NCBI GenBank assembly: GCA_964419615.1
Contig: CAYQPU010000007.1
Coordinates: 1-51,563 of the forward strand
Source of the DNA: an uncultured Methanosarcinales archaeon
GTDB lineage: Archaea; Nanobdellota; Nanobdellia; Woesearchaeales; JAGVZT01
DNA length: 51,563 bases
Direction of reading: 5' to 3'
The notes below the pieces were generated by a model. The model had not been told where the DNA came from, made no database searches, and saw only the letters and a list, made by a program, of their open reading frames with translations. Positions 12,501 through 25,700 of this stretch are shown here, one piece after another. The first letter of the stretch is position 1. Every line of letters starts with the position of its first letter. A program made the position numbers and the translations under genes.

Positions 12501-12726
12501 CTCTATCCCAGACATTAAAACCTTGCATTCTTTTGTATCTTAAAGGAATGTCTTTTAGTGATTTGTTCCAAGCTGTTCCCAAGTGAACTTTTCCAGAAGT
12601 GTAGGGAGGTCCATCTAGCCAATAATAGATTTTTCCATTTTTGGTTTTATCTTTAGCTATTTGGTATATTTTACTTTTTTCCCAATAATCATAAACTTCT
12701 TGTTCGGTTTTTTTGAAATCATACAT
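9598..12726 (-). CDS. ileS: Isoleucyl-tRNA synthetase (archaeal/eukaryotic type)
   Basis: DGPPYTSG..HLG (HIGH), WTTTPWT, GTGLVHTAPG, RQRYWG, KMSKS. Start refined to MYDFKK. Confidence 0.97.
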   Translation of the reverse strand: MYDFKKTEQEVYDYWEKSKIYQIAKDKTKNGKIYYWLDGPPYTSGKVHLGTAWNKSLKDIPLRYKRMQGFNVWDRAGYDMHGLPTAHAVMKKLGLKHKEDIEKYGVEKFVEACKKLSVDNMLIMNKDFQRLGVWMDFENAYQSITQEFVEGVWWLVKKAHENKRLYEGKLAMTWCKDCGTALAKHELEYQNIADTSIFVKFPIVGKENEFLVIWTTTPWTIPFNLAVMVHPELEYVRAKVDNEIWIVAKGLANTFISSVADKQFEIEEEFLGEKLNGLKYTHPFYEVLKPVYDEISSKSKKAFSVVLSSEYVDLSAGTGLVHTAPGCGPEDYEVGHREGIPPFNNLDQTGVFPDTMGKFAGLTAKKDDNKFVEALQESGKLIATTQVDHDYAHCWRCKNPVIYRTTKQWFFKIEDLKEKMRKLNKKIYWVPEHAGTKNFDSWIANLRDNGITRQRYWGTPLPVWRCNDCQEYVVVGSKKELKELAGSLPKDLHKPWIDEVKFKCKCGGEMNRIPDILDVWIDAGSASWLCLDYPHREDLFKKMFPADFILEGIDQIRGWFNMLFVASMVSMNEPSFKAVYMHGFINDAQGRKMSKSLGNYILPEEVLEKYGADTLRYYMVSGANPGVDLNYNFDDMKVKFRNLGVLWNLHKFLISYCKLNNVNPSLLKIKKFDLEEEFILSKLNSSIQKATEVYDKYLLNETPLVAEDLFLSLSRTYVTLVRDKLSVGDKKQKQMVLHTIYEVLMGALKIFAPVAPYITDAIYMNLRDEFKLERKSIHLCDWPKANKKLINTKLEEQFEITDIVIQKTLYAREKLNLGRRWPLSEAIIVTEKKEVTKAVKELEDIIKLQTNVKKLTLKKEFETKLKVKTDYNKLRKDYGGMAAKIIAHISLTSPQTVLAHIQKEGEYKFNIDGADLSIKKDHLIIEKEAPDGYVCTQTNFGDIFVNSEMNNELLAEGYAREVVRRVQMLRKKAGLNQSDKIELYVQVDKELKQTLDKYKTDIKERVGASEQQISELDPSKQFEHSADHKIRGKQVKVFLTKI

Positions 12727-13050
12727 TTTAATTACCTCAGTTTTATACATGATATATAAAGATTTTGACATTGTTTGAGCACAGCTCAAACTAGATAATA
12801 ATAGAAATAATTGATTTTCTGCAATATTTCATATATAGATAGAAGGGAGATTAGTATAAAAAGCTTTCTGAAACTACAGATTAAAACAAAAAACTTACAA
12901 ATATTTAATAATATGGGATGATATTTTGCTGGTGTAAGATTTATGGTTGGTATGACCTATATGATAGCAGGAGATTACAATGCTCTATCTTCAGTTAATG
13001 CCATAAAAAGAAGGGAATCAATTAAGACTTAAATAAATTACTGGCAAAAT

Positions 13051-13060
13051 AGTAAAAAAG
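13051..13060 (-). terminator. Oligo-T terminator directly after tRNA-Leu
   Basis: Minus strand reads CTTTTTTACT immediately after discriminator A73; no CCA is encoded. Confidence 0.55.
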
Positions 13061-13074
13061 TGCGGGGGAGGGGA

Positions 13075-13220
13075 CTTTCATAATCTTTTACTAGTTTTAA
13101 CCAAAGGCAGCACTCTTATGTGCTTGAGTCGTGGCCATCATGTTTTCATGAACGCCACATTATGGGACTTTATGTCCCATTACTTTTGGTCAAGCTTTTG
13201 CGCAAAGCGGAAAAGACTGA
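13075..13220 (-). other. tRNA intron 3 (position 59/60, 146 nt, multi-branched structure)
   Basis: BHB: central helix UUCA/UGAA, bulges AA|U and AG|U, flanked by the T-stem and the intron helix AGUCUUUU/AAAAGAUU. Confidence 0.9.
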
Positions 13221-13252
13221 TTTGAACCCCCGGACCCACTAAGGGACAGGAT

Positions 13253-13277
13253 ATCTCAGGTACAATTGAGTGTCCAT
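13253..13277 (-). other. tRNA intron 2 (canonical 37/38, 25 nt)
   Basis: Central helix CUUA/UGAG, bulges AG|A and AU|A; the intron-side helix is weak (relaxed BHB). Confidence 0.9.
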
Positions 13278-13309
13278 CTTAAGTCCTGCGCGTTTGACCA
13301 GACTTCGCT

Positions 13310-13341
13310 TTAAGGATATGTGGAACAAATGCCCACACTCT
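13310..13341 (-). other. tRNA intron 1 (position 8/9, 32 nt)
   Basis: Central helix GGGG/CCUU, bulges GU|A and AA|A, intron helix GUGUGG/CCACAU. The AG redundancy also allows 9/10 or 10/11, but only 8/9 satisfies BHB geometry. Confidence 0.8.
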
Positions 13342-13942
13342 ACCCCCGCGTGTCTGGTATTTTTGATATGGGTTTAATCAAGTTTAAAAAATTTTCCTTT
13401 TGTTTATTTGTAACTCTGAGTACATAATGGGGTTTTCTATTTTCCTTTAGTATAGGTCCTCTCATAGTGTGTTTAAATCCCAAATCACCAAGTAATGCAG
13501 AAATATCATAAATTCCTTTTTTATTCGATGAGAAGAATCTGATGCCATTTACAGCTGAACCGTCTCCGTCAAAAAAACCTCTGATAAAAGCAGTTTTGCA
13601 TTTTAAATCTCCAGTTTTTACTGCTTCTGGAACTTTCCAAGTAAAACTCCCCAAATTTGTGTAACTAATTATGTCTCTAATTATTACCATTTTACAAATA
13701 TTTATTTTATTATATTTTGTGATTTTGGGATAATAACCATATTGTTGATTTAGTAAATTTTGATAATGCACAAGTAACTTGATATCCTTGTTATATAACT
13801 CAATTCTTTCAGATTTATCATTCTTATAAAATCTCTTTTTTCCTCTATCTTTACCCCAATAACTTGAAAAAGATACAATGTGTGAGCCTTCTGCACATAA
13901 TAATCCCAAAATTTCTGACAGTTCTGGAGTTATTTTATTCAT
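13340..13942 (-). mobile_element. Free-standing two-motif LAGLIDADG homing endonuclease gene overlapping the tRNA-Leu 5' end
   Basis: Motif 1 LSEILGLLCAEGS and motif 2 TAFIRGFFDGDGS, both with the acidic catalytic residue. SD GAGGTGA at 13956-13950. No intein Hint residues. Last codons ACG CGG GGG TAG contain tRNA nt 1-8. Confidence 0.88.
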
Positions 13943-13945
13943 AAA

Positions 13946-13976
13946 CAAATCACCTCACAAAATTAGGGAGGATTTG
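13946..13976 (-). promoter_or_regulatory. Hairpin covering the endonuclease Shine-Dalgarno sequence
   Basis: CAAAUC-CUC ... GAG-GU-GAUUUG pairs across the GAGGUGA SD, 4 nt before the ATG. Confidence 0.5.
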
Positions 13977-23075: not shown

Positions 23076-25700
23076 TTATTCGATAGAGAATTTTTTCTCT
23101 TGCTTAAGTGCTGTTGGTGCACTTCCTCCATGCCATGTTAATCTTGGTCTTACTCTTATTGGAAATATACGTTCGTTTGTGTCATCAAATACTATTGCTG
23201 ATCCTTTTTCTCTTGGCAGCTCATTTATGTATTTGTCTAAACTTTGCTGCATATAACTTTGCATGAGCATGCCAAGAGCTTCAACATCAAGTTTTGCTGT
23301 TAGTCTATGCGATATTACTGTGTCTGATTGTGTCATTACATCAGTGTGTATTTTCCCGGGTTGTTGTGAAGCAAGGATTAGACTTATACCAGGTTGTCTT
23401 CCTTCTCTAAGGATTGTGATTAATGGTCCTGATGCTAAGGTTGATCCTTCTCTTGGTAAGAATTCATGTGCTTCATCTATTACTAACCAAACTAATGGTT
23501 CTTCTGTGGTTGAATCTTCTTGACTAAATGGAGACATTGATTTGTGCACAGATTGGTATTCTTCTGTTCTTCTTGCAATCATTCTTGCAACAAAGAGTTT
23601 TTCTGCCACTAAACCTATGACTAATGATCTGATATGATTTGATCCTGCTGTTGTTGCATAACAACTTACATCTAAGACTGTGATTTTGCCTGGATTGATT
23701 AGGTCCTTTAGTTTTGTTCCTTCTTTGTCAAATAGTCCCCATGATTTTGCTGTTTCAAATCTGTTGATTGCAGCTTCTTTTCCATGATCATCATAGGTTT
23801 TTATTAGGTCAATAATATCTTGAAGTGAGTAATTTTCTATTTTGTTTTTTATTTCTGATATTGCTCTCATTATCAAGACACCATGAGGTTCGTTAACATC
23901 CAATTCAAATGTGGTGCACCAGTCTTCTGGCGCTAGTTCTGAGGGTTGGATTGAGAATGGAAAGTCTGTTGGAACACCACTGTCTTTGAATTGTTGAAAG
24001 TATCCTTTTGGTGTATAGATTTGAACATCTAATCCTTTTGGCTCCATTCCCCATTTTTCTAAAAGAGTTCTGTCTTGTTCATTTGGATATTTCATGGTCC
24101 AGTATATTCCCATTGTGTCAAGCATTATTATGCTGAGTTTTTTAGCAATTTCTTCGGGTAGAGCTACCATTCCTTCTGCAACAACTCCCATTGAATAGCT
24201 GTTATGTACAATAATATCATTTGCAGTGAAATTATGAAGGTTGGGGACTGATATATCATAAACCTCAAAAGATCCATTAAACTTATTTATCTCAACGATT
24301 TCATCCCAGAATATATCCGATCCGGCTAGTGCTTTGATTCTTTTATTATTATCTAATTCTGCAATTTGAAGAAGCTTTTGTCTTGAGGGAGCATAATTTA
24401 TGCTGCTTCGAAGAGCCTTTGGAGTTGAATAACCCATCTCTCTGCCAATCTCTGCCCAGTTTTGAGGTCTGTAATAATCCCAAATCTCCTTTGGAATAGT
24501 GTCAATATTAGGATTTCTCTTTACTGAATTAATTTCAACAAGAGCTTTAGATTGTTTTGTTTGCTTATCTCCAAAAAAGCCAATTTCATGGATGAATTTT
24601 TCAACATTTTCTGAGGAAAATACAATCTCATAGGTGATAAAAGTTTTTTGATTCAATTTATGCTTTTTCTTCCTAATTCTACACAAAATCCCAAATCTCA
24701 AGAGTAAATGCTGCACTTGATGTATTAGTTTTTTAGAACTTGATGAGTAGCTAACTTGCCAAATATCAGAATTTGTACATTTCTTTTTGTATATACTTCC
24801 ATCACAACTGAATAATCTGTTTAAGAATATTGATAATTTGTGCTTAGGTAATTTTAAAATACACTTTGGAATTGTTTTGTCTCCTGATTTCTTCTTATAC
24901 AGATTTGTCTTTTCCAGCAAGATTCTAATTGAAGTTTTCTCATGCTTAATATAGGATCCTTCTAAAAACCTTCCATCAACATCTCGATTGATGTGATAAT
25001 CCAATACTTTTCTTTTCTTTGAAGATGTTATATCGAATTGACATGAACTATTTTTTAAGGATCTCACATTTAAAGTATTATCAAAGGTAGCAATTGCTTG
25101 TTTAAAGTCATTAACTAATTTGGAATCAGTATTTGTAAAAAATATTTTCTTCCCAAGATGACCTTCAGCAATTAGGTATGCTAATATCTTTACTTCTGAT
25201 TCAGAAATATCATATGTTCCAAAATACGGTGCAGCTCTCGGAGTTGCTATTCTATCTCCAACTTTCAATCTATTTGTTGGGACCCAACCCTCAATTTTTA
25301 GTAAGGGATGATCTGGAGTAAGATTAATTGTTTTTCCGCTTCTTAGTCTAACTTCAAATAGTTTATTTGTTTCTCTTTTATAGAATCCTTGTTTTTCATT
25401 TGAGACAATCTTTAGAGAATGATTCAATCCGAGAATTCTGTTAGTATCATTATCTAAATCCTTTATTGGTATTGTATCTCCATTATCCAAGGTTATTAAA
25501 GTATCTCCGTGAAGACACTTTCCAGAACCTCTTTTTCCGCATATGAATAAAACATGTGAACTTGTTACGTCCATTAGAACTTTGTTTGATAATGAAGTTG
25601 TTTGTCCCATCTGGACATAGTGTTTTCCAAGAAGTATTGTGCCTTTTAATCCGAACTTTTCTTTGTCTCTAGGTTTTCTACCTATTACAATGTCATACAT
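23076..25700 (-). CDS. HerA/DUF87-like P-loop ATPase (435-aa extein) containing an intein
   Basis: Walker A GKRGSGK|S is split by the intein; Walker B LVIDEAHEF; LREGRQPGISLILASQQP. Confidence 0.88.
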   Translation of the reverse strand: MYDIVIGRKPRDKEKFGLKGTILLGKHYVQMGQTTSLSNKVLMDVTSSHVLFICGKRGSGKCLHGDTLITLDNGDTIPIKDLDNDTNRILGLNHSLKIVSNEKQGFYKRETNKLFEVRLRSGKTINLTPDHPLLKIEGWVPTNRLKVGDRIATPRAAPYFGTYDISESEVKILAYLIAEGHLGKKIFFTNTDSKLVNDFKQAIATFDNTLNVRSLKNSSCQFDITSSKKRKVLDYHINRDVDGRFLEGSYIKHEKTSIRILLEKTNLYKKKSGDKTIPKCILKLPKHKLSIFLNRLFSCDGSIYKKKCTNSDIWQVSYSSSSKKLIHQVQHLLLRFGILCRIRKKKHKLNQKTFITYEIVFSSENVEKFIHEIGFFGDKQTKQSKALVEINSVKRNPNIDTIPKEIWDYYRPQNWAEIGREMGYSTPKALRSSINYAPSRQKLLQIAELDNNKRIKALAGSDIFWDEIVEINKFNGSFEVYDISVPNLHNFTANDIIVHNSYSMGVVAEGMVALPEEIAKKLSIIMLDTMGIYWTMKYPNEQDRTLLEKWGMEPKGLDVQIYTPKGYFQQFKDSGVPTDFPFSIQPSELAPEDWCTTFELDVNEPHGVLIMRAISEIKNKIENYSLQDIIDLIKTYDDHGKEAAINRFETAKSWGLFDKEGTKLKDLINPGKITVLDVSCYATTAGSNHIRSLVIGLVAEKLFVARMIARRTEEYQSVHKSMSPFSQEDSTTEEPLVWLVIDEAHEFLPREGSTLASGPLITILREGRQPGISLILASQQPGKIHTDVMTQSDTVISHRLTAKLDVEALGMLMQSYMQQSLDKYINELPREKGSAIVFDDTNERIFPIRVRPRLTWHGGSAPTALKQEKKFSIE
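24201..25517 (-). mobile_element. Intein (439 aa) with LAGLIDADG endonuclease
   Basis: Begins at Cys (CLHGDT, codon 25517-25515). Block B INLTPDHPL, EN blocks LAYLIAEGH and LNRLFSCDGS, block F VYDISV..HNF; ends HN before Ser+1. Confidence 0.95.

Follow-up and report, generated by a model that had tools for sequence, protein, structure and literature searches.

A three-intron tRNA-Leu(UAA) gene and the T-loop intron family it carries in a Woesearchaeales archaeon

The question raised by the locus described here is whether a tRNA gene that consists mostly of inserted DNA can still supply its cell with a tRNA. The window, a stretch of 51,563 nt that corresponds to contig C7 (CAYQPU010000007.1) of the archaeal assembly GCA_964419615.1, contains on its minus strand a 289-nt locus that is a tRNA-Leu(UAA) gene with three introns, which account for 203 nt and leave 86 nt of joined exons. 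A preliminary description of this DNA had proposed such an architecture, and its exon and intron coordinates, the share of intron sequence and the complete class II tRNA obtained by their removal are all confirmed. The evidence set out below indicates that this is very probably the functional, single-copy tRNA-Leu(UAA) gene of the organism, a tiny marine archaeon that is uncultured, with bulge-helix-bulge (BHB) introns at positions 8/9, 37/38 and 59/60.

The spliced tRNA and its three junctions

When the four exons are joined, ARAGORN reads the 86-mer as a class II tRNA-Leu(taa) with no stem mismatch. The spliced product has a 7-bp acceptor stem composed entirely of Watson-Crick pairs, U8, GG in the D-loop, U33, the anticodon UAA, a long variable arm, the T-loop TTCAAAT and the discriminator A, and its exon joins match those of uninterrupted orthologues exactly. 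CCA is not encoded at the 3′ end of the gene. The earlier wording that the introns lie in three different arms is right as to the three sites and inaccurate as to the arms, since 8/9 is the junction between acceptor stem and D-arm, 37/38 is in the anticodon loop and 59/60 is in the T-loop. Likewise, its classification as a multi-intron tRNA with non-canonical positions applies to 8/9 and 59/60 and does not extend to 37/38, which is the ordinary canonical site.

Each junction was compared with a BHB motif of two bulges of about 3 nt around a 4-bp helix, cut in symmetric register, with the cuts set between the second and third bases of a 3-nt bulge. Such a motif can form at all three, as the preliminary description had claimed: in every case the central helix has its full 4 bp, the 3′ bulge is 3 nt long and the exon helix measures 3-5 bp (pairings in Table 1). 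The h/h′ scores of the BHB scan are 3/4, 4/3 and 4/4 for introns 1, 2 and 3, respectively. The BHB of intron 2 is also the minimum free energy (MFE) fold of its surroundings. Introns 1 and 3 have a slightly irregular 5′ bulge of 3-5 nt and are near-canonical BHBs, intron 1 being the weakest of the three. A placement of intron 1 shifted by one base to 9/10 was rejected, as it gives the same product but loses the central helix.

Table 1. Positions of the tRNA-Leu(UAA) locus, its flanking elements and related features elsewhere in the assembly. Positions without a contig label refer to the window; H, central helix; h, exon helix; a slash within a motif marks the cut.
Feature	Position	Strand	Description
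LAGLIDADG endonuclease open reading frame (ORF)	13340..13948	-	202 aa, free-standing; Pfam LAGLIDADG_3, E 1.8e-14; both motifs intact
TATA-like element	13383..13391	-	TTTTTTAAA; 34-42 nt upstream of tRNA position 1; likely promoter, judged from sequence
Exon 1	13342..13349	-	8 nt, GCGGGGGT; tRNA positions 1-8, 5′ strand of acceptor stem and U8
Intron 1	13310..13341	-	32 nt at 8/9; H, G3-G6 with intron CCUU; h, 3 bp, nt -1 to 2 with nt 10-12; 3′ bulge AA/A
Exon 2	13278..13309	-	32 nt; standard positions 9-37, D arm, 5′ half of anticodon arm, anticodon UAA
Intron 2	13253..13277	-	25 nt at 37/38; H, C32-A35 with UGAG; h, anticodon stem; 3′ bulge AU/A
Exon 3	13221..13252	-	32 nt; positions 38-59, 3′ half of anticodon arm, long variable arm, 5′ T-stem, T-loop to A59
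Intron 3	13075..13220	-	146 nt at 59/60; H, U54-A57 with UGAA (UUCA:UGAA); h, T-stem, 5 bp; 3′ bulge AG/U
Exon 4	13061..13074	-	14 nt; positions 60-73, U60, 3′ T-stem, 3′ acceptor strand, discriminator A
T6 run	13054..13059	-	one base past the discriminator; likely archaeal transcription terminator, on the same basis as the promoter
Long T-loop intron	C21:14642-14787		copy of the intron 3 family
Long T-loop intron	C35:12033-12181		copy of the intron 3 family
Long T-loop intron	C32:6942-7088		copy of the intron 3 family
Long T-loop intron	C26:21697-21837		copy of the intron 3 family
Long T-loop intron	C10:1585-1775		copy of the intron 3 family with extra nested insertion
Long T-loop intron	C13:36888-37062		copy of the intron 3 family with extra nested insertion
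EndA gene	C3:32058-32714	-	219 aa; PF02778 and PF01974
RtcB gene	C1:45127-46422		538 bits

A single-copy gene concealed from tRNA finders

The assembly comprises 1.48 Mb at 33% GC and is 99.4% complete, and ARAGORN, Rfam, a SPLITS-like scan and blastn all failed to turn up a second tRNA-Leu(UAA) in it, whether intact or interrupted; a blastn search of the genome with the spliced tRNA returns the gene's own exons only. The preliminary description had named an intact intronless tRNA-Leu(UAA) elsewhere in the genome, which would make this locus a decaying pseudogene, as the finding that would overturn its reading, and these searches looked for such a copy and found none. Parses of "Leu(taa)" at C13:37194 and C26:2337 were rejected as second copies, being poor alternative readings (scores of 22 and lower) of other tRNA genes. 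Among the 252 leucine codons of five neighbouring genes TTA is the most frequent (77, or 31%), and about 55 nt upstream of the tRNA, including the TATA-like element, can still be aligned with the upstream region of a sister species. The gene is probably essential.

These observations bear directly on the possibility of pseudogene decay, in which a tRNA-Leu would have been killed by insertions that include a T-loop repeat element while its function moved to another gene. Insertions do make up 70% of the locus, intron 3 does come from a repeat family and a selfish endonuclease gene does abut the 5′ end, but the usual marks of a tRNA pseudogene are absent: all four stems are without mismatch, the promoter region is conserved and no redundant copy was found in this genome, which uses TTA so freely in the genes sampled. 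Moreover, a BHB in exact register flanks every insert, and the 27 tRNA genes of this genome that carry an insertion at the same T-loop site cannot all be dead. Decay of this kind is highly improbable.

ARAGORN makes no call on the unspliced gene with or without its intron option, whether given the window or the locus, as expected of a program that models introns of the anticodon loop only, and Rfam returns no tRNA or intron family for the unspliced locus at the gathering score or at E<=10. The prediction that standard finders would miss the gene is borne out for both tools. In the SPLITS-like scan, BHB candidates were located, every combination of up to three was removed and the result was given to ARAGORN. 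The real genome yields 29 loci by this procedure, with the tRNA-Leu(UAA) gene at the joint top cloverleaf score of 71, whereas the reversed genome, which offers as many candidates (73,280, giving 2.5 million combinations), yields two loci with a best score of 36.

Across the whole genome, ARAGORN makes 10 tRNA calls, and 10 loci pass the cut-off of the Rfam tRNA model. Removal of BHB introns brings out at least 26 further tRNA genes and, counted with the Rfam hits, raises the visible tRNA loci to 36 or more; protein-spliced introns keep the majority of the genome's tRNA genes out of reach of standard software. The inventory is incomplete, as no convincing cloverleaf is reached at C16:16881, C20:19766, C3:41985 and C10:1775, four loci that bear copies of the intron 3 family and probably carry more introns or relaxed ones. 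A second gene with three introns is the tRNA-Glu(CUC) gene at C26:2056-2337 (-), which has an intron of 173 nt in its D-loop, one of 17 nt at the canonical site and one of 30 nt at 59/60.

The repetitive nature of one intron also raises the matter of assembly error, since members of such a family could be mis-joined in a short-read assembly and give a chimeric contig, in this metagenome-assembled genome (MAG), of tRNA fragments and repeat copies. This is scarcely credible, given that DNA contigs from four public marine runs (two studies) agree base for base with 12700-13248 and 13324-13583 and span both ends of intron 3 with unchanged junctions, that the flanking genes are syntenic with those of the sister species and that the product is a perfect tRNA. 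The contigs of these four runs contain no intron-less allele of this strain, and the intron-less forms that do occur in metagenome contigs belong to a different species, with 12 differences in 91 nt. An apparent contig joint between 13253 and 13285 was dismissed as splicing evidence because it stems from a divergent relative.

Intron turnover in the genus and a neighbouring endonuclease gene

Intron 3 differs from its two neighbours in having about 16 blastn relatives in the genome (68-89% identity), at site 59/60 and located in tRNA genes of different identity with differing T-stems on either side; introns 1 and 2 are single-copy, with no paralogues in the genome. A scan for T-loop introns, defined by a T-stem, TTCRAN, an intron ending in YGAA-AR, a base followed by C61 (TC or CC) and the 3′ strand of the T-stem, detects 59/60 introns in 27 tRNA genes of this genome compared with one match in the reversed control. 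These introns range from 14 to 191 nt and end in YGAAAG/TCC (two with CCC and one with AAAA), and the BHB register AA/N ... YGAA-AG/U is constant in all of them, whatever their length. The long ones (82-191 nt) constitute one covarying family, from which examples, including the two copies with nested insertions, are listed in Table 1. The consensus fold of eight full-length copies comprises 43 pairs, 16 of them with compensatory double changes, and consists of five helices, namely a terminal helix that extends the BHB, a helix GACCAAA/UUUGGUC and three hairpins. RNAalifold recovers almost no structure from all 19 long copies, owing to misalignment and the nested insertions.

The distribution of this family was assessed by counting the junction signature GTTCRAAWCRAYCTTTT in 151 Woesearchaeales genomes against a backwards-pattern control. 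The signature occurs 15 times in this genome (control, 2) and 12 times in the sister species (control, 3), and is at or near background in the other 149, one of which (G127) is unpublished and supports no claim made here. The family to which intron 3 belongs consists of long, folded introns without genes, and it has spread in this genus. A box C/D guide RNA function finds no support in the intron, which has no CUGA in its sequence and no match to an Rfam C/D family; some paralogues have GUGAUGA or GUGAUGU in helix P4, and no partnering D box was found in them. The opposite strand of intron 3 (13053-13188, +) gives a sub-threshold match to the Listeria sRNA rli42 (20 bits against a cut-off of 80), which is taken as a by-product of the intron 3 hairpins and not as a gene.

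The isoleucyl-tRNA synthetase (IleRS) encoded beside the tRNA places the genome in the Woesearchaeota/Woesearchaeales (DPANN), and its nearest named genome is Ca. Woesearchaeota SuakinDeep_MAG79_5, with 80% protein identity. This sister species of the same genus (G001) carries its tRNA-Leu(UAA) gene at L022:2310-2457, equivalent to L004:1464-1611. Orthologues in 10 Woesearchaeales genomes keep the same exons, and their acceptor stems covary (GCGGGGG/CCCCCGC, GCGAGGG/CCCTCGC, GTGGGGG/CCCCCAC and GAGAGGG/CCCTCTC), while their intron load varies from zero to three or more. One relative (G025) has no intron, four (G013, G015, G036 and G028) have the canonical intron only, and two (G029 and G023) combine the canonical intron with one of 41 or 31 nt at 59/60. 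The sister species has introns of 17 nt at 20/21, 25 nt at 37/38 and 30 nt at 58/59, and none at 8/9. Its 17-nt D-loop intron lacks an exon helix and corresponds to a relaxed HBh′ motif.

Site 37/38 is filled by canonical introns of 15-36 nt in most orthologues. Across the order, identity is 72-93% in matches that run from exon 2 through intron 2 into exon 3 and 87-100% in matches confined to exon 2; the stretch across intron 2 with parts of the flanking exons reaches 93% identity in the sister species and 90% in G029. Intron 1 is absent from every orthologue examined. Exon 1 matches the sister gene's uninterrupted 5′ end base for base, and the first 20 bases of that gene equal exon 1 joined to exon 2, an equality that directly supports the boundaries of intron 1. 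As the canonical intron is the only one common to the sister species, introns 1 and 3 are lineage-specific. In the history that best fits these comparisons, intron 2 is old and common across the order, whereas introns 1 and 3 are gains that postdate the divergence of the two sister species; how the introns reached the gene is inferred.

A LAGLIDADG endonuclease ORF abuts the gene. It is not part of the tRNA, although its 3′ codons traverse the tRNA promoter and exon 1 and its TAG stop codon consists of U8 and the first two bases of intron 1. The synteny with the sister species, with PPDK on one side and tRNA-Leu and IleRS on the other, shows that the ORF was inserted, as a segment of about 0.6 kb, on the upstream side of the native tRNA promoter. 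No LAGLIDADG gene was found by tblastn at 19 orthologous tRNA-Leu loci, nor any paralogue by a protein search of the genome. Both the LAGLIDADG gene and intron 1 are missing from the sister species, a joint absence that is suggestive of linkage, though no proof of it. An origin of intron 1 from an ancestral 5′ leader displaced by the endonuclease gene was rejected, as leader and promoter still lie upstream of exon 1 in the alignment.

Further LAGLIDADG sequences are present in the genome. A second free-standing ORF of 265 aa (C16:12901-13146, -) lies directly 5′ of a tRNA-Arg(UCG) gene at C16:12742, which is found by ARAGORN and Rfam; the label tRNA-SeC given to it by ARAGORN is wrong, owing to a 17-nt canonical intron. 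LAGLIDADG_3 domains also occur within long ORFs of 908 aa (window 24579-24827, -) and 1247 aa (C17:27504-28037, -), where they are probably inteins in housekeeping genes.

A more elaborate history, in which one essential tRNA gene has undergone two recent invasions, one by a mobile T-loop intron and the other by a homing pair of intron 1 and the LAGLIDADG gene, is a tentative proposal that we consider doubtful. The 146-nt intron would on this account be a copy of an RNA-level mobile element with a conserved fold that promotes its propagation; it might, for instance, persist as a stable RNA circle, insert into T-loops when the EndA and RtcB reactions run backwards and then be copied into DNA. 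Intron 1 and the LAGLIDADG gene would have arrived jointly by collaborative homing, with the intron destroying the target of the endonuclease in the 5′ region of the tRNA.

Splicing enzymes and relation to known multi-intron tRNA genes

In the pathway proposed for this gene, transcription would start from the conserved TATA-like promoter, stop at the T-run and give a precursor of about 300 nt. The single α-type EndA, presumably a homotetramer, would cut both bulges of each BHB; RtcB, which is present in the genome, would ligate the four exons and probably circularise the introns; and RNase P, RNase Z and CCA addition would complete the tRNA.

The preliminary description expected the host to encode a splicing endonuclease of relaxed specificity and called for its architecture to be typed. 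By sequence that expectation is not borne out, as typing reveals a single α-type gene without the known specificity loops, colinear in its catalytic domain with the strict α4 enzyme of M. jannaschii. No β subunit or three-unit ε EndA was found in PF01974, PF02778 and protein searches of the genome to E<=10, and a 13.6-bit match in a 715-aa ORF was set aside as noise. The catalytic domain aligns without gaps over residues 79-219 to the M. jannaschii enzyme (1A79), and the Tyr, His and Lys residues align in its active-site region. Aligned residues 55-219, which cover most of the N-terminal domain as well, contain no insertion equivalent to the Crenarchaea-specific loop (CSL, or L1) or the ARMAN-specific loop (ASL, or L2), the broad-specificity enzymes being marked by a basic loop of their lineage inserted beside the catalytic site. 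The best match among PDB sequences is the α subunit of N. equitans (3IEY_A), relative to which the protein is six residues shorter at the His loop, that is, the N. equitans-specific (NEQ) loop 90-98 (PMC3488258), which is the "L3" of PMC5829648. The C-terminal Trp motif YYEIxWMxP is common with N. equitans and ARMAN-2. Homologues of 190-260 aa and 75-89% identity are frequent in Woesearchaeota, and the EndA of the sister species (P0002) is 89% identical and of the same single α type, despite the HBh′ intron there. The N-terminal tail of about 45 residues is more than 40% Lys and is lacking from many homologues of 195 aa; its composition suggests that it may be an extra RNA-binding element.

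As all three BHBs are close to canonical, broad specificity may be unneeded for this gene. Several points nevertheless weigh against its assignment as a functional gene spliced at the sites given. The splicing and the exact splice sites are predicted. Folds of introns 1 and 3 constrained to the BHB cost +3.9 and +3.0 kcal/mol, respectively, relative to the local MFE, and the 5′ splice site of intron 1 lies in a bulge that readily widens to an internal loop. According to the textbook rule, α4-type EndAs cut strict BHBs only (PMC5829648, PMC3488258), and with an enzyme devoid of specificity loops intron 1 might not be removed efficiently. The metagenome contigs in agreement with the locus may, in addition, derive from the source sample of the MAG itself.

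Some of these features would also suit a real gene in which at least one intron is removed at other boundaries or without EndA, by self-splicing or by an unknown factor acting on the T-loop intron: the BHB is not the MFE fold of introns 1 and 3, the EndA has no broad-specificity loops and the conserved multi-helix fold of intron 3 exceeds what a BHB needs. Such a route is very unlikely, however, as no group I or group II intron or other described RNA family is matched within the introns by Rfam (gathering score; E<=10 on the tRNA strand), and 146 nt is, from general knowledge, far under the size of group I and group II introns. The constant BHB register of the 27 T-loop introns is the signature of EndA, and the one-base shift of intron 1 already breaks its central helix. 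Removal of all three introns by EndA at the predicted sites accordingly remains the preferred reading.

Precedents for this organisation are found in the Thermoproteales, where the tRNA-Pro(UGG) of Pyrobaculum islandicum has introns at 25/26, 37/38 and 56/57 (Sugahara et al. 2007/2008, as summarised in PMC4090602). As here, the multi-intron genes of that order combine one canonical and two non-canonical BHB introns per gene and are missed by ordinary finders, and the list of sites in PMC4090602 includes 59/60 as non-canonical and does not include 8/9. The differences are that the Thermoproteales are Crenarchaeota whereas this host belongs to DPANN, that they have an (αβ)2 EndA with the CSL in place of the one α-type enzyme found here, and that the T-loop intron of the present gene is long and highly structured. 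Highly similar introns across tRNA identities, described in the Thermoproteales as paralogous or "transposed" introns (Fujishima et al. 2010, Mol Biol Evol 27:2233, as summarised in PMC4090602), imply recent copying by an unknown mechanism. Intron 3 shows this similarity across tRNA identities and introns 1 and 2 do not. In contrast to the type described in 2010, the expansion seen here concerns one site (59/60), has a covarying five-helix fold and leaves a signature enriched, among the 151 Woesearchaeales genomes, in this genus alone.

Closer to the present host, α4-type EndAs have been reported in DPANN archaea with heavily disrupted tRNA genes, including Ca. Woesearchaeota RBG_13_36_6 (Kaneta et al. 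2018; PMC5829648). This archaeon belongs to the same phylum-level group, has the same EndA type (81% identical) and likewise combines many interrupted tRNA genes with incomplete predicted tRNA sets. The trend is tied in that study to the "L3" loop, whereas the EndA described here, aligned with that of M. jannaschii, has no insertion at NEQ loop 90-98 or elsewhere in the catalytic domain, and the study presents genome-level tallies in which the tRNA-Leu(UAA) gene itself is not described. ARMAN-2 (Ca. Micrarchaeum; PMC3239211, PMC3488258) is another DPANN archaeon with non-canonical introns, including in the T-loop, and with the EndA C-terminus YYEIxWMxP and its RNA-contacting Trp; it differs in having a three-unit ε protomer (ε2) with the ASL and a relaxed T-loop BHB, as opposed to a single unit without ASL and near-canonical BHBs. 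A further published study of tRNA introns describes a comparable situation in which most tRNA genes are interrupted, lineage-specific gains recur, insertion sites are BHB-competent and annotators miss many of the introns; it found no general sign of copying among tRNA genes, whereas copying of one family is evident here. The gene joins a known class of multi-intron archaeal tRNA genes, in a lineage for which a 2018 study flagged such genes without describing them individually. What it adds is comparative: an intron content that turns over between sister species, one member of a structured T-loop intron family that is spreading, and an EndA of one subunit that lacks the loops.

For the DPANN archaea, the concealment of tRNA genes behind BHB introns means that MAGs scored as tRNA-poor may merely hide their tRNAs. 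The congeneric pair, with the same tRNA-Leu exons and canonical intron and with all non-canonical introns different, provides a dated example of gain or loss at one locus. As one loop-less α-type EndA must serve dozens of non-canonical introns, the genome is a test case for EndA specificity, which the relaxed HBh′ intron of the sister species extends; were the doubtful proposal of two invasions true together with such an enzyme, the rule that α4 cuts only canonical introns would fail in DPANN. The related copies of the T-loop intron, finally, offer a handle on how protein-spliced introns spread, which is an unsolved question.

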